From Polyangia bacterium (GTDB lineage: Bacteria > Myxococcota_A > Polyangia > Palsa-1104 > SHYY01), in assembly GCA_036263495.1 (NCBI GenBank), contig DATAGU010000095.1:1223-65222 (forward strand): DNA of 64,000 nucleotides. The letters are read 5' to 3'. Under the pieces are notes generated by a model. It saw only the letters and a list, made by a program, of their open reading frames with translations. It was not told the DNA's origin and did not search any database. The number at the start of each line of letters is the position of its first letter. Position 1 is the stretch's first letter. Below, piece by piece: positions 1 through 52,517 of the stretch. The position numbers were made by a program, and so were the translations under genes.

Positions 1-2514
1 AGCGTCAAAGGCTGGATCGACAAGGGCGACCACCGAGTGCGAGGGCGCAATGTCGGTGTTACGGCGCAGGAGGTCCCTGCCCGAAGTGAGATAGGTGAGG
101 TCGTAGGCTTCGACCAGAAAGGACGTGCCGTCATGGAGCGCGGCGAAGGGTATGAGGCTGAGCTGCCCGTCCGGAGAGAGGAACAGCTGGCGCTGCGAAC
201 CGAGGAGCGGGGCAATGGGCTGGAACACCAGATGATATAGCTCTTGGGATGCCTTGAGGTAGGCCGCATCGCGATGGGCCAGGGCGTCATGCAGGCGGGC
301 GACGGCGTTGTCGATCGCGGCGGTGGGGCCGAGATCGGCCACTCGGATATCGCGGTTGGGGAGTAGGACCAGGGCAAAGTAAACCGGAGTGATGTGGATC
401 TTGGAAGGGTCAGTTCCGGGCAGAGGCACGAGGGGATGGGCGGTAAAGGCGATGATCTCGATGAGCGCGCCATCGGTGGGCAACGCGGCCGCCGCGCGTG
501 CGATCACATCGGCGGGAAGGGGAAGCTGGCGCTGGGCTCGGAAGACCGCTGAGTGCTGGGCGAGTTCGGCCTCTAGGGTATCGCCCTGGATCTCCAGGTC
601 CTTGAGGCGCGCCTGGTAGGCGATGGGCGAGAACTGGCCCGGACCGCTATACGACAGGGCCGACAGCTGGGTTCGTAGGGCTCTTAGGCGCTGGAAGGTT
701 TCACGGTCCGCCTCGCCCAGACTGCGGTAAATGGTCCGCGAGATATCGGCGAGTTCGTCTACCGAGCGTCCCTTGTGCAAGAGCGCGCCGATGAGTGCTA
801 GACGGCGAACAGCGGATTCCGAAGGTCGTTTAAGGAGCAATTTGTAGAGGGTGACATCTTCATATCGCAGCAGACTGAGCAAATCGGCTAAGCGTGCCTC
901 CGAAAGGCCAAGGGCTTCTTTCCTGAGACGCTGTTCAGAAATGGCGAAGGCACGTTCGAACAAAGGCAACACGGAGCCATAGCGGTTCAGGGCGAGGTTG
1001 AGTTGGGCAAGATTTTTGAGTACTGTAGCGACATTGGGATGATTTTTTCCTAGGGTAGCTTCCGTGATCTGGAGCGCGCGCTGATACAGCGGCTCAGCTC
1101 GCCCATACTTCCCCTGGTCCGCGTAGAGAAGAGCAAGATTGTTGAGTACTGTAGCGACGTCCGGATGATTCTTTCCTAGCTTCGCCTCCCAGATCTGGAA
1201 AGCACGCTGAAACAGTGGCTCGGCGCGATCGTAGGCCCCCTGATAATAATAGAGACTGGCAAGGTTGCCGAGTGATGTAGCGACGTCCGGATGATTCTCT
1301 CCTAAAGTTGCTTCCAATATCTTGAGAGCTCGCTGAAGCAGTGGCTCGGCACGCTCATACGCCCCCTGGTCCGTGTAAATGGTGGCGAGATTATCGATTG
1401 ATATGGCGACGCTGGGATGATTCTTTCCTAGCTTCGCCTCCCGGATCTGGAGCACACGTTGAAATAGTGGTTCGGCTCGCGCGTACTCCCCTCCGTCTTG
1501 GTAGAGAAGAGCAAGGTTGTTGAGTACTGTAGCGACATCGGGATGGTCTTTTCCTAGGGCAGCTTCCAAGATCTGGAGAGCGCGCTGATACAGCGGCTCG
1601 GCTCGCCCATACTCCCCCTGAACCCTGTAGAGATTTGCAAGATTATCGATTGAAATTCCGATGTCAGGATGACCTTTTCCGTGGACTGTTTCTAGGATCT
1701 GGAGTGCACGCTGATACAGTACCTCAGCTTGAGCATACGCCCCCAGAGTCTTGTAGAGAAGAGCGTGATTGTTGAGTGCTGCGGCGACGCGGAGTTGACT
1801 CTGTCCCGAGGCCATTTCCAAGATCTGGAGTGCATGCTGATACAGCGCCTCAGCTCGTCCGTACTCCCCCTGGTTCATGTAGAGAAGAGCGAGATTGGTG
1901 AGTACTGTAGCGACGTCGGGATGATTCTTTCCTAGCTTCACCTCCTGGATCTGGAGAGCGCGCTGAAACAGCGGCCCGGCGCGCTGGTAGGCCCCCTGGG
2001 CCTGATAGAGGCTTGCGAGGTCGTTGAGGGATATGGCGACATCGGGATGATTCTTTCCCAGCACCGCCTCCCGGATCTGCAGAGAACGCAGATAGAGCGG
2101 CTCGGCGCGCTGGTAGGCCCCCTGGGCCCGATAGAGGCTTGCGAGGTCGTTGAGGGATATGGCGACGTCGGGATGATTCTTTCCCAGGGCCGCTTCCTGG
2201 ATCTTAAGAGCACGCAGATATAGAGGTTCGGCCTGTGAGAAGTTCCCCTGTCGTTGATGAAGTTTGCCGAGGGCATCAAGACATTCGGCCACCGCAAGAT
2301 GGTCCGGCCCCAGCGCCTTCTCCCGTAGCTGGACCGCATGCTCAGCCAGTGGCAGCGCTTCGGCATACTTCCCTTCCTGTCCGAGCCTCTCGACTTCCTC
2401 CAGCTCCTTCTGTGCCTGTGCCAGCTGCTCCACGGGGTGAGACTCCCCGGCCCTCGCTCCCGCGGCATAACAGACGACAATGATGACCGCAATCTGCCCT
2501 AAGACTGCACGCAT
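1..2514 (-). CDS. TPR-repeat (42-aa TPR_10/12-type) / CHAT-domain protein, partial (C-terminus runs off the window start)
   Basis: Reading the reverse complement from the ATG at 2512-2514 gives a signal-peptide-like N-terminus (MRAVLGQIAVIIVVCYAAGA). It is followed by about 13 tandem 42-aa repeats of type NLAxLYxxQGxYxRAEPLYQRALQIxExxLGKxHPDVAxxLNN, visible as a 126-bp DNA periodicity across 900-2500. The same frame continues to position 1 through a CHAT-like region (LYHLVFQPIAPLLGSQRQLFLSPDGQLSLIPFAALHDG). It is missing from the ORF track because it is open to the window edge. The listed ORF 1938..2492(-) is the +1 shadow of this frame. Confidence 0.75.
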   Translation of the reverse strand, partial: MRAVLGQIAVIIVVCYAAGARAGESHPVEQLAQAQKELEEVERLGQEGKYAEALPLAEHAVQLREKALGPDHLAVAECLDALGKLHQRQGNFSQAEPLYLRALKIQEAALGKNHPDVAISLNDLASLYRAQGAYQRAEPLYLRSLQIREAVLGKNHPDVAISLNDLASLYQAQGAYQRAGPLFQRALQIQEVKLGKNHPDVATVLTNLALLYMNQGEYGRAEALYQHALQILEMASGQSQLRVAAALNNHALLYKTLGAYAQAEVLYQRALQILETVHGKGHPDIGISIDNLANLYRVQGEYGRAEPLYQRALQILEAALGKDHPDVATVLNNLALLYQDGGEYARAEPLFQRVLQIREAKLGKNHPSVAISIDNLATIYTDQGAYERAEPLLQRALKILEATLGENHPDVATSLGNLASLYYYQGAYDRAEPLFQRAFQIWEAKLGKNHPDVATVLNNLALLYADQGKYGRAEPLYQRALQITEATLGKNHPNVATVLKNLAQLNLALNRYGSVLPLFERAFAISEQRLRKEALGLSEARLADLLSLLRYEDVTLYKLLLKRPSESAVRRLALIGALLHKGRSVDELADISRTIYRSLGEADRETFQRLRALRTQLSALSYSGPGQFSPIAYQARLKDLEIQGDTLEAELAQHSAVFRAQRQLPLPADVIARAAAALPTDGALIEIIAFTAHPLVPLPGTDPSKIHITPVYFALVLLPNRDIRVADLGPTAAIDNAVARLHDALAHRDAAYLKASQELYHLVFQPIAPLLGSQRQLFLSPDGQLSLIPFAALHDGTSFLVEAYDLTYLTSGRDLLRRNTDIAPSHSVVALVDPAFDA

Positions 2515-4744: not shown

Positions 4745-4908
4745 ACGCGCGGTTTGAGCAAGTGAAGTGCCAGGCCAGGATGAGAGGCCATTCCATGCGC
4801 GGCGCCCTCCAACGGGGCCCGCAGGGCCGCAAAACTTTCCAGCGACGGCGCGGCCTGACGAAGAGATTGCGCGATTCCATCATGGGATGGGCGTTGTACC
4901 CTGGGGCC

Positions 4909-24172: not shown

Positions 24173-24583
24173 CTACCCGGGCCGCTCCTGGATCTCGCGC
24201 ACCGCGGCGCGGGCCCGCCGGGCGCGGGCCTCCTGGTCCTTGGCCGCGGCCCACTGTTCGAGCGTCAGGAGGGCCTCACGGCGCACGCCCTCGGCCGCAT
24301 CGTGGAGCGCGATGTGACGCAGGAGGGGGATGGCCTCGGCTTCACCGATCTCACGCAGCGCATAGACGAGGTGCTCGCGCCCGGATTCGTCGGCCGTATG
24401 GAGGGCGGCCTCGATCGGCGGCAGGGCGGCGACGCCGTGGCGTACCAGGCGGCGGGTCGCGGCCTGCATCATCTCCCCTTCGTGCGCCACGACGATCTGG
24501 ACGTCGCCGCGCAGCGCGTCCGGATCGTCACGGCAGGCGGTGAGGAGCAACGCCAGCGCCAGGCTCGCAAGACGCGTCGTCAT
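24173..24583 (-). CDS. Small lipoprotein with HEAT/PBS-lyase-like repeats
   Basis: A lipobox is present (LALALLLTAC). It contains Ala/Leu-rich helical repeats. Confidence 0.45.
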   Translation of the reverse strand: MTTRLASLALALLLTACRDDPDALRGDVQIVVAHEGEMMQAATRRLVRHGVAALPPIEAALHTADESGREHLVYALREIGEAEAIPLLRHIALHDAAEGVRREALLTLEQWAAAKDQEARARRARAAVREIQERPG

Positions 24584-24639
24584 CGCGGGGTCCTACATAC
24601 CACGACGTGAGGGGCCGGTCTGAGGTGCCCCGCGGCCGG

Positions 24640-24995
24640 AAGAGGGGACTCCCTGTGCGAACGGGGGTCCTCCCTGTCCGAAAGAGGGTCCTCCCTGTCC
24701 GAGAGAGGGTCCTCCCTGTCCGAAAAGGGGTCCTCCCTGCGCGAAAGGGGGTCCTCCCTGCGCGAAAGGGGGTCCTCCCTGCGCGAAAGGGGCGACTCCC
24801 TGTGCGAACGGGTCGACTCCCTGTGCGAACTGTGCGAACGGGGCGACTCCCTATGCGAACGGGGCGACTCCCTATGCGAACGGGGGACTCCCTGTGCCGA
24901 AAAGGCGGCTCCCTATGCGAACGGGGCGGCTCCCTGTGCCGAAAAGGCGGCTCCCTACGCGAACGGGGCGGCTCCCTGTGCCGAAAAGGCGACTC
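24640..24995. repeat. Degenerate tandem direct repeat array, ~21-bp unit x ~17 (consensus ~TCCTCCCTGTCCGAAAGAGGG / GACTCCCTATGCGAACGGGGC)
   Basis: The array is directly visible. It occupies the divergent intergenic region between the 24173..24583(-) lipoprotein and the 25157(+) monooxygenase. Unit length varies between 20 and 22 bp, so no reading frame is preserved. Confidence 0.85.
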
Positions 24996-25156
24996 CCTAT
25001 GCGAAAAGAGGGCACCCCATCAGCTTGTATGCGATGCCGCACGGCGCCCGGCGTCTCGCAACTCGCGACACGCTGCGCGGCTCGTGGGCTCGGGGGCCGG
25101 CCGGCCGGCCCTTTGGGCCTTTGTCCTGCACCCTGACTGCGGGTAAGCTCCCGGCC

Positions 25157-26632
25157 ATGTCGACCTCATGGGATGTCATCATCGCTGGCGGTGGCTTTGC
25201 CGGCTCGACGTTGGCCGCGGCGCTCGCCAATGGGAACCGGCGCGTGCTCTTGCTCGAGGCGCGCTCGGGACCGGACCCGCGCTTCCGAGGCGAGCTCATC
25301 CACCCGCCCGGCGTCTCGGTGCTCGAACGTCTCGGCCTGCTCGGCCCGCTCGACCGGGCGGGGGGCTTCCATGTCACCGGCTTTGCCGTGATCCCGGCCG
25401 GCGATCCGGACGCGGTGGTGTTGCCGTATGGCGAGGTCGAGGGCGGACGCCCTAGGGGCTTTGCCATCGATCACCGCGAAATGATCGCGGTCCTGCGCCA
25501 GGAGGCGGCCCAGCGCCCGGGCGTGGAGGTGCGCACCGGGCAGCGGGTGGCCGAGATCCTGCGCGAGGGCGACCGCGTGGTGGGCGTGCGCACCGCCGAC
25601 GGCACCGAGCATCGCGCGGCGCTCACGGTCGTGGCCGAGGGCCGCCACTCCAAGCTGCGCAGCGCGGCCGGCTTCCGCGAGGAGAGCCGGCTCCTGTCGT
25701 GGACCGCGGCGCTCCTGGTCAAGGACACCACGCTGCCCCAGCCGGGCTGCGGCCACGTCATCCTCGGCGCCCCCGGCCCCATCCTGGCCTACCCCATCGG
25801 CCGGAACGAGGTGCGCATGTGCATCGACGTCCCCTCGGACCTCACCAAGGGACGCGACGCCGTGGTGGAGCTCTTGCGCACTCGCTATGCCCCGCTCGTC
25901 CCCGAGCCGCTGCGCAGCGGCATGCTGGCCTCGCTCGACGCCGAGGCGCCGGAGATGTGCGCCAACCATGCCATCTACACGAGCGAGTGCGTGCAGCCGG
26001 GGCTCGCGCTCCTCGGTGACTCGGCCGGCTGCTCGCACCCCCTCGCCGCGAGCGGCATGACCGTCGTGCTGAGCGACGTGCGCATCCTCGCCGAGGAGCT
26101 CGCCCAGAAGGCCACGATCGACGAGGCGCTCGCCGCCTACCAGCGGCGGCGCTACCGCTTCGCGCGCGGCCGTGAGGTGCTCTCGGACGCGCTCTTCGAG
26201 GTGTTCCGGGCCGCCGACGCGGGCAACAACGCCCTGCGCGAGGGCATGTATCGGTACTGGCGCGGCAGCCGGCGGGCCCGCGCGGCCTCGGTGGGCGTGC
26301 TCTCGGGCCACGATGAGCGGGTCGTCGGCTTCGTCGCCGAGTACCTGCGGGTGTTCTTCGGCACGACCGGTCACATCTTGCTCGCCCGCGGCGGCGGCAG
26401 CCTGCGCGAGCGGCTCGGTTGCCTCGATCTGGCGGTGCGGTCGAGCTGGGCGCGGATGGACCGGGCCTTCAAGATCCTCTACCAGAACATGCGTCCCCGG
26501 ACCGGCACCGCCGATGGCCAGCGGGCGGCGCCGCCATCGCGATCGGCTGCCCCGAAGGCCTCCCCCGGATCCGAGCGCAAAGCGCAGCGCCCCGAGCCCG
26601 AGTCCCGCGCCGCCACGCCCCCCGCCGCCTGA
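25157..26632 (+). CDS. FAD-dependent monooxygenase, squalene-epoxidase-like
   Basis: A dinucleotide-binding GGGFAGS motif is present. An SE-family motif (LLGDSAGCSHPLAASGMTV) matches the GDAxNMRHPLTGGGMT signature. The start is trimmed to ATG 25157. Confidence 0.7.
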   Translation: MSTSWDVIIAGGGFAGSTLAAALANGNRRVLLLEARSGPDPRFRGELIHPPGVSVLERLGLLGPLDRAGGFHVTGFAVIPAGDPDAVVLPYGEVEGGRPRGFAIDHREMIAVLRQEAAQRPGVEVRTGQRVAEILREGDRVVGVRTADGTEHRAALTVVAEGRHSKLRSAAGFREESRLLSWTAALLVKDTTLPQPGCGHVILGAPGPILAYPIGRNEVRMCIDVPSDLTKGRDAVVELLRTRYAPLVPEPLRSGMLASLDAEAPEMCANHAIYTSECVQPGLALLGDSAGCSHPLAASGMTVVLSDVRILAEELAQKATIDEALAAYQRRRYRFARGREVLSDALFEVFRAADAGNNALREGMYRYWRGSRRARAASVGVLSGHDERVVGFVAEYLRVFFGTTGHILLARGGGSLRERLGCLDLAVRSSWARMDRAFKILYQNMRPRTGTADGQRAAPPSRSAAPKASPGSERKAQRPEPESRAATPPAA

Positions 26633-28012: not shown

Positions 28013-28315
28013 GGGTCCCGGGTTACCGCAGCCGAGTCACTGCTGGCAAGCCGCGAGCGCCATACCGCGCCCCCGATGCCCCGGATCACCGAGATCGATG
28101 GGTTCCAACCCCCCAAACATGGATCGCCGGTACAGACGCAGATGAGCAGTTCGCGGCACTGCTTTTGCTCTTCTCCAAGGATACCGTGGCCGCGGTCTCC
28201 AGCGATGGGTCACCCCATCGCCCGAGGGGAGTGACGTGTGCTCGTTCCTCCTCCTGCAGCCAGGGCTTCCCGAGGAGGAAGAACAGCTCCTCGCCCGAGA
28301 GCAAAGGAGAGGGTG

Positions 28316-50092: not shown

Positions 50093-50485
50093 ATGCGCAA
50101 CGTTTACTGGAGTGCCCTGTTCCTCGCCCTCACGGCCGGCGGCTGCAGCGTGCCTACGGCCCGGTCGGCTGAAAACCCCCCTCCGCCGGCGGCCCAGCCG
50201 GCCCAGCCGGCCCCTGCCCAGCCCGCGGAGTCGCCTCCGCCCGCGCCGCCGCTCAAGACCGGCAGCGCGCGCGTGCCGGATGCGCAGGGGAAGCCGTGCC
50301 CGGACGGAAAGTGTCCGGCGCCGCTCACCTGCGTCAGCTACTACGGCTTTGCCGGGCCGCGAGGGCCCAAGTTCACCTCGTGCGAGATCCCCTGCCCCGG
50401 GGGTGGCAAGTGCCCCCCTGGACAAACGTGCGGGATCATCGCCGATGGTCCCGGCCAGGTCTGCCGCCCCACCGGCCAGCCCTGA
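50093..50485 (+). CDS. Small Cys-rich lipoprotein
   Basis: A GAGG SD and an AT-rich -10-like stretch lie upstream. A lipobox is present (LFLALTAGGC), followed by a Pro-rich linker and CPxGKC modules. Confidence 0.6.
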   Translation: MRNVYWSALFLALTAGGCSVPTARSAENPPPPAAQPAQPAPAQPAESPPPAPPLKTGSARVPDAQGKPCPDGKCPAPLTCVSYYGFAGPRGPKFTSCEIPCPGGGKCPPGQTCGIIADGPGQVCRPTGQP

Positions 50486-50489
50486 GCCC

Positions 50490-50860
50490 CCAGGACCTGG
50501 GTCTCTCCGGCCCCCAATGGGTCTCTCCGGCCCCCAATGGGTCTCTTTTAGACCCAGTGGGTACATCAAGACCCCCAATGGGTCTCTGAGAGCCCCCACG
50601 CGACGCCTGGAGGCCGCCAATCCCCTTGGGGCACAAGCCACTGGTGATGGAGAGGGCGATTTCTGGGTCTCTTTTTGACCCATTGGGTCTCTCAGAGACC
50701 CCAGTGGAGGCCGCCGGGTCTCCACTGGAGGCCCGGACGTCTCCATTGGAGGTCTCGGGGTCTCCAATGGAGGCCTTGGGGTCTCCATTGGAGGTCTTGG
50801 GGGCTCTATTGGCGGTCTTGGGGGCACCAGGGGAGGCCCGGGGGGCTCCCCTGGCGGAGA
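50490..50860. repeat. Cluster of short palindromic/direct repeat units (GGGTCTC..GAGACCC hairpins; ~6 tandem ~22-bp GGTCTCCAnTGGAGGyCTTGGG units)
   Basis: The cluster is directly visible in the convergent intergenic region between 50093..50485(+) and 50868..52517(-). It contains the perfect palindrome GGGTCTCTCAGAGACCC. Confidence 0.75.
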
Positions 50861-50867
50861 GATCAGC

Positions 50868-52517
50868 TCAGATGCCGCAGGCGGTCCAGGCCTGGGCCAC
50901 GGTGTTGTACTGCGCGCTGCCGGAGCCGAAGATCGCGGCGGCGGCGCTCAAGGTGGCGTTGCGCGCGCCGGCGAAGTTGGTGGACGAGGTCATGTACGAG
51001 GTGAGGGCGCGGTACCAGATGCGCTCGCACGCGCTGTAGCCGATGCCGCTCACGGTCACGCCGCTCCGGTGATGCGTGCCGCCCTGCGAGCAGAGGTAGA
51101 AGACGTAGTTCGGGATGCCCGAGTTGATGTGCACGCCGCCGTTGTCCGAGGTGCCGGTGTAGCGCTCGGCGTAGTGGTCGGGATCGTCGTCGGCGGTGAA
51201 GCCGGAGTTCTTGGCGAGGTGCGGGTTGTACATGTAGCGCAGCGCGTCGCCCGCGGTGGCCGGGGTGTAGGCCTGCTCGCCGATCTGCCAGGTGCGGGTG
51301 TCGGGGCTGACGCCGCGCGCGTAGCGCTCGACCATGGAGCCGAAGACGTCGGACATGGACTCGTTGAGGGCGCCCGACTCGCCCGAGTAGGTGAGGTTGG
51401 CGGTGAACTGGGTGACGCCGTGGGTCATCTCGTGGCCCGCGATGTCGACGGTGACGAGCGGCGAGAAGGTGGTGCCGTCGCCGTCGCCGTAGGTCATGAC
51501 CGAGCCGTTCCAGTAGGCGTTGTTGTAGGCGCTGCCGTAGTGCACGACCGAGCTGATGAGGCCGACGGTGCTGCCCGCCACCCAGCCGTAGTAGCCGGGG
51601 CCGCCCGCGTTGTTGATGCCGTAGCGGCCGTGGGTGTTGCGGTAGTACTCCCACACCTGGCGGGCGCCGAAGTGGGCGTCGACGGCGGCGCGCTGCGTGG
51701 CGCCGTTCCAGAGGTTGTCGGCGTCGGAGAAGCGGTAGACCGAGCCCTGGGTGTTGCGGGCGTCGAAGGTGCCGATGCGGCGGTTGACGCCGGTGACGAC
51801 GGCGGTGTTCTCTTCGAGGTAGTAGGCGCCGTTGTAGAGGGTGGTCTCGACGCTGACGGTGCCGCTGTAGAGCGATGAGCCGGTGCCGGCCACGGTCTGG
51901 AGATCGTTGTACCTCCAGACGATCTCGCCGCTGTGGGCGTCGACGAAGTAGACCGGGAGCGCGGTCTCCCGGCTGCCGTCCTCGCGGCGCAGCTGCACGC
52001 GGTAGGCGAGGTGATCCCGGCCCTCGTGACGCAGCACCCACAGGTCGGCCTTGGGCTTGGTGGTCAGGCAGTCCGAGCAGCCGTACGCGGCGACGGCGAG
52101 GCGGATGGCGTCGGCCTGGGGCACGACGGGGGTGGTGTCGACCTTGATGTCGCGCCGCAGCGTGTCGCTGACGGTCTGGAGTGAGCCGCTCTGGCCGAGG
52201 TGGACGATGGCCTCGCCGCCAAAGACGGGGACGCCGTGGAGGGTCTGCTGGTAGCGGGTGTGGCTGTATCCGTCGTCGTCACCGAATTGGCGGGTGATGC
52301 GGAGGTCGTCGTCGCGGCCGATGTCGGCGTTGCCCACGGTGCGGCGCAGGTGGTCGCGGCTGATGGCGTCGAGCTGTGGGTCCGGGGCGCGCGTCGCCAC
52401 TTCATCCTGGGGCGAGGCACGGTCCGCCGTCCCGCAGCCCGGGGCGAAGGCCAGTGTTGTGGAGACGGCAACGGCCGACAGGGGAAGGTGCAGCTTCCGA
52501 TTCCAGCGTGCGCTCAT
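50868..52517 (-). CDS. Secreted M4 (thermolysin-family) zinc metalloprotease
   Basis: The zinc-binding motif is HEMTHGV...GALNESMSDVFG. A signal peptide and pro-region are present. The start is trimmed to ATG 52517 (MSARWNRKL), which has a GAGGAGG SD. Confidence 0.85.
   Translation of the reverse strand: MSARWNRKLHLPLSAVAVSTTLAFAPGCGTADRASPQDEVATRAPDPQLDAISRDHLRRTVGNADIGRDDDLRITRQFGDDDGYSHTRYQQTLHGVPVFGGEAIVHLGQSGSLQTVSDTLRRDIKVDTTPVVPQADAIRLAVAAYGCSDCLTTKPKADLWVLRHEGRDHLAYRVQLRREDGSRETALPVYFVDAHSGEIVWRYNDLQTVAGTGSSLYSGTVSVETTLYNGAYYLEENTAVVTGVNRRIGTFDARNTQGSVYRFSDADNLWNGATQRAAVDAHFGARQVWEYYRNTHGRYGINNAGGPGYYGWVAGSTVGLISSVVHYGSAYNNAYWNGSVMTYGDGDGTTFSPLVTVDIAGHEMTHGVTQFTANLTYSGESGALNESMSDVFGSMVERYARGVSPDTRTWQIGEQAYTPATAGDALRYMYNPHLAKNSGFTADDDPDHYAERYTGTSDNGGVHINSGIPNYVFYLCSQGGTHHRSGVTVSGIGYSACERIWYRALTSYMTSSTNFAGARNATLSAAAAIFGSGSAQYNTVAQAWTACGI

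Follow-up and report, generated by a model that had tools for sequence, protein, structure and literature searches.

Simple-sequence contingency loci, such as those of Neisseria and Haemophilus, are built from perfectly homogeneous, hypervariable units of 1–9 bp, located either in a promoter, between its −35 and −10 elements or within them, or in coding sequence. In cyanobacteria, heptamer tandem repeats go by the name of STRR. Intergenic VNTRs and promoter tandem repeats have also been documented upstream of leaderless genes in Mycobacterium tuberculosis, where the repeats are repeated promoter elements, including a 57-bp dop element, and where copy number varies within isogenic cultures (PMC12817950). 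We found no report of such arrays in the literature on myxobacteria.

Here, we describe a tandem array of seventeen units that occupies the spacer between two divergent genes in an uncultured soil myxobacterium of the class Polyangia (Myxococcota), represented by a metagenome-assembled genome. Our analysis took in the 64-kb stretch of DNA in which the array lies (the window), orthologous loci in relatives, other assemblies of the same locus and larger sequence collections. Most likely, the array is a bacterial minisatellite of an ordinary sort that expanded recently, rather than a regulatory device that has been conserved.

The array and its genomic setting

Because the window has a GC content of 70%, its ORF lists are full of spurious frames; real genes were picked using a GC3 filter together with Pfam. 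The seven genes around the array encode MarR and TerB-like proteins, a trypsin-like protease, the HEAT lipoprotein, two FAD monooxygenases and a histidine kinase (Pfam). An initial sequence-only reading of this DNA had placed the repeat in a divergent promoter region between a lipoprotein gene and a gene for a squalene-epoxidase-like monooxygenase, and this setting is correct (Table 1). In more distant relatives, the monooxygenase adjoins squalene synthase, with the P0010 loci also carrying an oxidosqualene-cyclase-type gene.

TRF reported a period of 21 with ~18 copies at 24643–25006, while anchoring on CTCCCT resolved 17 contiguous, head-to-tail units, each opening with that hexamer and measuring 21 bp (n = 15), 20 bp (n = 1) or 30 bp (n = 1). 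The 13-nt core CTCCCTGYGCGAA (the core motif of the unit is also written CTCCCTRYGCGAA), searched with ≤2 mismatches, gave 23 matches in the window, 17 inside the array and six elsewhere, against a chance expectation of 7.1 ± 2.8 per window; none of 100 shuffles (0/100) reached 23. The same search found no array unit elsewhere in the 64 kb. TRF, anchoring and enrichment over shuffles thus agree that the seventeen-copy degenerate 21-bp array first noticed in the sequence-only reading is real, with two amendments: unit dissection moves its end from 24995 to 25013, and unit length does vary and includes a 20-mer, as had been said, but the range is not 20–22 bp, there being no 22-mer and one 30-mer. 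The units abut with zero spacers and no Cas domains were found by Pfam among the seven genes, in keeping with the earlier verdict that this is not a CRISPR.

At a 90% match, TRF divided the array into two sub-blocks, with a period of 21 at 24649–24829 and a period of 42 at 24833–25005. The degenerate unit 0 at the left edge matches the consensus at 12/21 positions and its best unit at 14/21, as against 6.2 ± 2.0 for random genomic 21-mers. Of the 573 bp that separate the divergent genes, the array takes up 365 bp. The (GGCC)4 microsatellite, also located between these genes, gives a second indication of slippage.

Table 1. Coordinates of the array, its parts, flanking genes and promoter-like elements, and of a second array, within the window.
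Feature	Position	Strand	Basis or remark
HEAT-repeat lipoprotein gene, 136 aa, lipobox LLTAC	24173..24583	-	Pfam HEAT_2; orthologues L006 80%, L007 78%
-10-like TATGTA, 10 nt upstream of lipoprotein ATG	24594..24599	-	Suggested by sequence and spacer comparison; no tool-scored promoter
Degenerate in-register 'unit 0' at left edge; core now CCCCGC, decayed from CTCCCT	24628..24648	.	
Tandem array, 17 units, consensus CTCCCTGTGCGAACGGGGCGA	24649..25013	.	TRF, unit dissection, motif enrichment
Unit 9, 30 bp; CTGTGCGAA (9 bp) tandemly duplicated inside	24817..24846	.	TRF period 9 at 24821-24839
Unit 11, 20 bp, one base deleted	24868..24887	.	Unit dissection
Units 12-17, two unit types alternating as a 42-bp higher-order repeat	24888..25013	.	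TRF period 42, 90% match; pairwise matrix
(GGCC)4 microsatellite, same spacer as array	25095..25110	.	TRF
-35-like TTGTCC of conserved monooxygenase promoter-like block	25121..25126	+	Five-sequence alignment
-10-like TAAGCT, 17 nt past -35-like element, 7 nt before ATG	25144..25149	+	Invariant in five relatives
Squalene-epoxidase-family FAD monooxygenase gene, 491 aa, ATG 25157	25157..26632	+	Pfam SE 1.1e-38
Second array, 20-21-bp units	50498..50857		Between small + strand ORF and 3' end of M4 metallopeptidase gene

Adjoining the monooxygenase start codon is a block common to the sequence described here and those of four relatives (CTTTGTyC-N10-GACTrCGGGTAAGCTCC), with the invariant columns GACT.CGGGTAAGCTCC and ending in all five sequences in GGGTAAGCTCC directly before the ATG. 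This conserved block reads as a putative sigma-70-type promoter, and the distance between its −10-like TAAGCT and the ATG, taken with its conservation, implies that the monooxygenase mRNA is probably leaderless. On the lipoprotein side, the TATGTA block is partly conserved in two of the relatives (L006 and L007). The array begins ~50 bp upstream of that −10-like element and ends 115 bp before the −35-like element of the monooxygenase, and so is wholly upstream of both putative core promoters; no sigma-70 consensus was found in the array region itself.

Unit history and occurrence in relatives and other assemblies

The 17 units comprise 15 distinct sequences, with units 5 and 6 identical, as are units 12 and 14. 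In the pairwise unit matrix, similarity between neighbours exceeds that expected of a random order (p = 0.003 at lag 1, p < 1e-4 at lag 2), and units from different blocks match at as few as 12/21 positions. Taken together, the similarity of neighbours, the identical units, the 42-bp repeat and the decayed edge unit are the expected signature of duplication of one or two units at a time, followed by divergence. Differences between units reach 9/21, so the array has existed for some time despite the usual deletion bias.

A homology search recovered four orthologues of the monooxygenase, 83–89% identical, on contigs L004, L005, L006 and L007. On L006 and L007 (monooxygenase identity 86% and 83%, respectively), an orthologous HEAT lipoprotein gene lies divergently upstream, so that spacer length can be compared at the orthologous locus: 573 bp here versus 157 bp in L006 and 154 bp in L007. 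A different gene lies upstream on L004 and L005, where the spacers measure 115 and 162 bp. The array unit was found in none of these four spacers (0/4), and all four array-less relatives keep the monooxygenase promoter-like block. Absence from the relatives makes the array dispensable there, which is no proof that it is functionless here.

At the place equivalent to (GGCC)4, the L006 spacer carries a different repeat, of 11 bp in 3.7 copies; on the evidence of these two repeats, the spacer is prone to slippage. The L004 spacer holds a candidate for an ancestral 'seed', GCGCGAAAGGGACGAC, which matches one unit at 15/16 positions, with 5/300 shuffles doing better; once corrected for the four spacers tested, this match is only suggestive.

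Searching by exact protein sequence recovered the locus from two JGI metagenomes and from a Logan assembly. JGI contig Ga0400235_0004174 differs from the window at 7/6936 positions, and its 573-bp spacer, array included, is identical; in the second JGI contig, the gene spacing is also 573 bp. The unitig from Logan ends at the point where units 5 and 6 become the same; this reflects the limits of assembly, not a difference in biology. Repeats can be built wrongly in metagenome assemblies, but the diversity of these units makes the array resolvable with short reads and, because the array is identical in one independent assembly and the spacing is the same in a third, it is not an assembly artefact. 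At this shallow divergence the array is stable, and no copy-number variation was seen among consensus assemblies of two or three samples, in which minority variants are invisible.

With moderate confidence, we read the array as a lineage-specific, non-coding minisatellite (a VNTR-type tandem repeat). As in minisatellites and VNTRs generally, its head-to-tail, non-coding units fall within 10–100 bp and point to local duplication, and its presence and length vary among relatives. Such an array would have arisen within the divergent spacer through repeated local duplication of one or two units, by replication slippage or unequal recombination, with the copies diverging afterwards. Its main physical effect would be to put 365 bp more between two divergent, probably leaderless, promoters, and it would also place 17 CTCCCT-core motifs upstream of them, approximately two helical turns apart. 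Since the gene pair and the promoter-like block persist in relatives that lack the array, expression of the flanking genes would not be expected to depend on it, and it probably lacks any essential function.

Regulatory, RNA and coding alternatives

A possible, though not probable, rival is that a CTCCCT(RY)GCGAA core forms the putative site of a sequence-specific DNA-binding protein and has been amplified into an operator array, with 17 sites on one face of the DNA mediating cooperative activation or repression of the lipoprotein promoter and possibly that of the monooxygenase. This would be compatible with a minisatellite origin and differs in that the array would be functional now. In its favour, six of the seven invariant columns (7/21) form the contiguous CTCCCT (P = 0.002 versus random placement), a clustering that uniform neutral decay does not predict and that may mark a bound motif; it is the sole positive hint of one. 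Also consistent with an operator are the retention of 21 bp in 15/17 units and the position of the array, abutting the −35 zone of the lipoprotein promoter. A comparable pattern comes from L007, which has a 15-copy 21-bp array upstream of cydA (unit GGAAGTGGTGGAAGCAGCCCC) with an invariant core of its own, TGGAAGCA, that is likewise clustered (P = 0.03).

Against this, the array is absent from all four relatives, although these retain the promoter-like block and two of them the orthologous lipoprotein gene as well, and the 64 kb contain no further copies of the motif. The multi-site binding platform proposed in the sequence-only reading is therefore possible by way of the CTCCCT core, but sits awkwardly with the four array-less relatives and with a unit that is unique in the window. 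Nor is any regulator gene consistently adjacent: the MarR gene lies 2.5 kb off and, in L007, does not appear among the genes called upstream of the HEAT gene. We also considered a sigma-54 promoter served by an enhancer and rejected it, as sites are at or below chance: the lone −24/−12 match in the spacer (TGGCAC-N5-TTGCW) has three mismatches, and the window holds 169 matches versus 199 expected. Intrinsic curvature arising from 21-bp phasing was rejected in the same way, since wedge-model ratios of end-to-end to contour length (indicative values only) were 0.89 for the array, 0.92 ± 0.06 for background and 0.67 for 17 copies of a random genomic 21-mer, so that the array is the less curved and its predicted curvature is unremarkable.

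The JGI metagenome collection was scanned for pairs of in-register units, with matches that did not include the source contig. The 40 single-match contigs resolved into coding sequence, a low-GC element unrelated to the array and one mini-array of three units (L031), which has the same core and lies on an unrelated contig (60% GC); none of these 40 contigs, drawn from a sample that does not include the source genome, carries a large array of the unit. A genome-collection scan relied on a three-anchor pattern, which is also satisfied by (CTCCCTN)n heptamer microsatellites, and many of these were among the matches listed. One Polyangia match was among those listed, a Byssovorax MAG (L060) whose 8 x 21-bp array separates divergent gene starts; it was discarded as a relative of the array unit, its likeness being at chance level once forced positions are discounted.

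A broader proposal, which we regard as doubtful, is that helically phased intergenic arrays of 20–21 bp form a class in this Polyangia lineage; each would be an operator amplified in situ, and as cooperative platforms evolving quickly by unit duplication they would rewire promoters in a lineage-specific fashion. Large intergenic arrays in ~83 kb of the close lineage have a period of 20–21 in all three cases (3/3), with unrelated units, and each array has an invariant core of its own where we compared them (CTCCCT here, another in L007). More distant Polyangia, sampled over ~63 kb of non-redundant DNA, showed no large arrays. As background, 1.06 Mb of unrelated bacterial DNA yielded a period of 21 in 5/31 arrays, and in 1/8 of those in high-GC DNA. 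With so small a sample, the shared period no more than hints at a phasing constraint. One of the arrays lies between convergent genes, so arrays of this type are not bound to promoters. The second array in the window (Table 1) has palindromic units (GGGTCTCT..AGAGACCC and TGGAGGCC..GGTCTCCA) and a fold z of −8.4; it is a hairpin array and a different kind of object from that at 24649–25013.

The sequence-only reading had also suggested a contingency locus, at which frequent, phase-variable gain and loss of units would tune expression of the flanking genes. This is unlikely. There is a documented analogue in the promoter tandem repeats of M. tuberculosis (PMC12817950), the tandem repeat does lie in a promoter-bearing spacer beside putatively leaderless genes, and the identical units (5 and 6, 12 and 14) are substrates for slippage. 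Against it, the array is unchanged in an assembly differing at 7/6936 positions and the spacer is equal in a third, although consensus assemblies make this a weak test; 15 distinct sequences among 17 units indicate slower slippage; and, unlike in classical cases, the repeat neither holds nor separates −35 and −10 elements. With no copy-number difference between assemblies and an array outside the putative core promoters, a contingency role is unsupported.

It is very unlikely that the array acts as RNA or single-stranded DNA, whether as a structured non-coding RNA or as a REP/BIME-like array of hairpins. Pairing is possible between the CTCCC and GGGGG runs of each unit, folding of the + strand gives z = −2.4, and the second array in the window is truly a hairpin array (z = −8.4). 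However, the + strand fold consists of C-runs paired with G-runs in register over a long range, at an ensemble frequency of 0.0002, the − strand gives z = −0.6, and no unit hairpins or palindromic units were found in the 24649–25013 array. Rfam 15 returned no matches at gathering score across the whole window, and the array region gave only sub-threshold chance microRNA matches. Moreover, no known transcript would cover the array, given its position upstream of both putative core promoters, and its unit is not dispersed in the window.

A protein-coding heptad repeat is extremely improbable, be it the 24607..25146 ORF, an N-terminal extension of the monooxygenase or a multi-core peptide precursor. 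The unit length of 21 is a multiple of 3, and no stop codons occur across the array in the three + frames, which is why the 24607..25146 ORF (179 aa) stays open. The sequence-only reading had argued that varying unit length breaks every reading frame; the 20-bp unit 11 does shift the repeat phase relative to any frame, but no + frame holds a stop. Its conclusion that a repeat protein is unlikely nevertheless stands on other evidence as well. Across six frames, the array has a GC3 of 0.59–0.75 and a GC2 of 0.61–0.75, as against 0.85–0.97 and ~0.5, respectively, for the filtered genes. A start codon precedes the array in just one + frame; in the other two, the first starts come at 25025 (the monooxygenase frame) and 24894 (a Pro/Cys-rich frame), past most of the array. 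In the relatives, the monooxygenase begins at the same ATG, directly after the promoter-like block. A coding repeat and a multi-core peptide are thus rejected on GC3, the phase break and the missing starts.

Equally remote, and effectively refuted, are an assembly artefact, as set out above, and iterons of a replication origin: direct repeats of ~21–22 bp are typical of iterons, and the sequence-only reading had raised them, but Pfam found no Rep gene among the seven neighbours, no DnaA box (TTATCCACA, ≤1 mismatch) was found within 9 kb, and no AT-rich stretch was found at 23.5–26 kb, where GC is ≥0.62 throughout.

Significance and comparison with described repeat systems

If the array is only a minisatellite, it offers a marker for strain typing or assembly quality in an uncultured Polyangia lineage and illustrates how quickly promoter spacers change in the large genomes of myxobacteria, one orthologous spacer having yielded three different slippage products across relatives. 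Should a protein bind the CTCCCT core, the array would represent a regulatory input made by amplification of a single site beside a likely sterol-pathway gene (squalene epoxidase), and would bear on the control of bacterial sterol synthesis. Neither outcome bears on a long-standing open question.

Like REP/BIME elements, the array consists of short intergenic repeats in a cluster, but its units are non-palindromic and give no fold signal; the REP/BIME-like member of the window is the second array, at 50498–50857. Cyanobacterial STRR and (CTCCCTN)n repeats are also intergenic tandem arrays, but their true period is 7 bp, whereas no internal 7-bp substructure was found in the present unit. With plasmid and phage iterons (~17–22 bp, in helical phase) the array shares a period of 21 bp in 15/17 units and the concept of a multi-site platform; unlike them, it is chromosomal, lacks an initiator gene, DnaA boxes and an AT-rich element, and has 17 copies, which is unusually many. 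The contingency loci of Neisseria and Haemophilus resemble it as promoter-region tracts able to change by slippage, but the present array, with diverged units of 21 bp, lies outside the core promoter and was stable in the available data.

The repeats of M. tuberculosis differ in that a 21-bp unit is too short to be a promoter, and in that the present array has 17 diverged copies lying upstream of the putative core promoters, with no copy-number variation seen in consensus assemblies. The two share a high-GC host, an intergenic, promoter-bearing spacer, leaderless-type promoters and an origin that would lie in slippage or recombination.

Promoter and pathway setting of the monooxygenase gene

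The squalene-epoxidase-family monooxygenase gene is preceded by a promoter-like block that consists of TTGTCC, 17 nt and TAAGCT. Only 7 nt separate TAAGCT from the ATG, a spacing that implies a leaderless mRNA. In L006, a relative's contig, the called gene start is an extra ATGTCG, a tandem duplicate of the conserved start.

In contigs of more distant Polyangia (L167–L176 and L183–L185), squalene synthase adjoins the homologous monooxygenase gene. The P0010 loci among them (L183 and L184) add an oxidosqualene-cyclase-type gene, a 3-beta-HSD-like dehydrogenase and a Rieske oxygenase, a gene set that is a bacterial sterol-synthesis cluster. As the homologue in these loci lies in such a cluster, the monooxygenase in the window is probably a genuine squalene epoxidase.

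Features in the window and in contigs of relatives and metagenomes
Feature	Location	Strand	Remarks
126-bp (42-aa) tandem repeat, 9.7 copies	window 1007-2232		72% match
Perfect sigma-54 consensus TGGCACTTCACTTGCT	window 4757-4772	-	
(GGCC)4	window 25095-25110		
Promoter-like block	window 25110-25159; equivalents in L004-L007		conserved in five relatives
Sigma-54 site CGGCACTGCTTTTGCT	window 28154-28169	+	one mismatch
Second tandem array, 20-21-bp units	window 50498-50857		unit unrelated to first array
GCGCGAAAGGGACGAC, single copy	L004 1986-2001		spacer of closest relative
11-bp unit CCTTGGGGGCG, 3.7 copies	L006 606-646		
15-copy, 21-bp array	L007 2340-2790 (JGI Ga0620845_0007626)		unit GGAAGTGGTGGAAGCAGCCCC, 89% match
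Three tandem 21-bp units	L031 11485-11560 (JGI Ga0079305_1003188)		first-array core

Repeats in relatives and in metagenome contigs

Different lineages carry different slippage products in the spacer orthologous to that holding the first array (17 tandem 21-bp units), among them the 11-bp repeat of L006 and the (GGCC)4 of the window. The single copy of GCGCGAAAGGGACGAC in L004 could be a seed of the first array; it matches a first-array unit at 15 of 16 positions, a match equalled by 5 of 300 shuffles and not significant after multiple-test correction. It lies after the upstream gene, within a possible hairpin, GTCCC-N11-GGGAC.

The L007 contig, from a relative with a monooxygenase 83% identical to that of the window, has an array with decayed edge copies, flanked by a DUF3455 gene upstream and cydA (cytochrome bd oxidase) downstream; in the JGI annotation a 97-aa gene is called on this array. 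A period of 20–21 is common to the three large intergenic arrays seen in this lineage.

Among contigs from the JGI metagenome scan for two array units in register, L031 (an unrelated contig, 60% GC) carries its units in the order CTCCCTGCGCGAA, CTCCCTGCGCGAA, CTTCCTGTGCGAT, directly 3′ of a gene's stop codon. Many metagenome contigs share a conserved low-GC element, in which the hairpin ccagccagcttgctggcttaa precedes CTCCCTGCGCGAAGCGCATAACTCCCT, with TAACTYCCTAT-type repeats coming next in part of the contigs (L011, L012, L015, L016, L019, L022, L024, L028, L030, L033, L036, L037, L039, L041, L044 and L045); this element is unrelated to the first array.

The second array and other features of the window

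A GAF/PAS histidine kinase gene (28235) begins approximately 65 bp downstream of the sigma-54-like site CGGCACTGCTTTTGCT. The 126-bp repeat is probably a coding repeat on one strand, with a TPR-like 42-residue unit.

The second array lies between a small Cys-rich ORF on the + strand, ending at 50485, and an M4 thermolysin-like peptidase gene on the − strand, with its stop codon at 50868. Within the window its unit was found at this locus only. The array is built of palindromic units (GGGTCTCT..AGAGACCC, followed by TGGAGGCC..GGTCTCCA), and the − strand gives an RNA fold with z=−8.4; the whole looks like a REP/BIME-style series of hairpins at a 3′ end or terminator.
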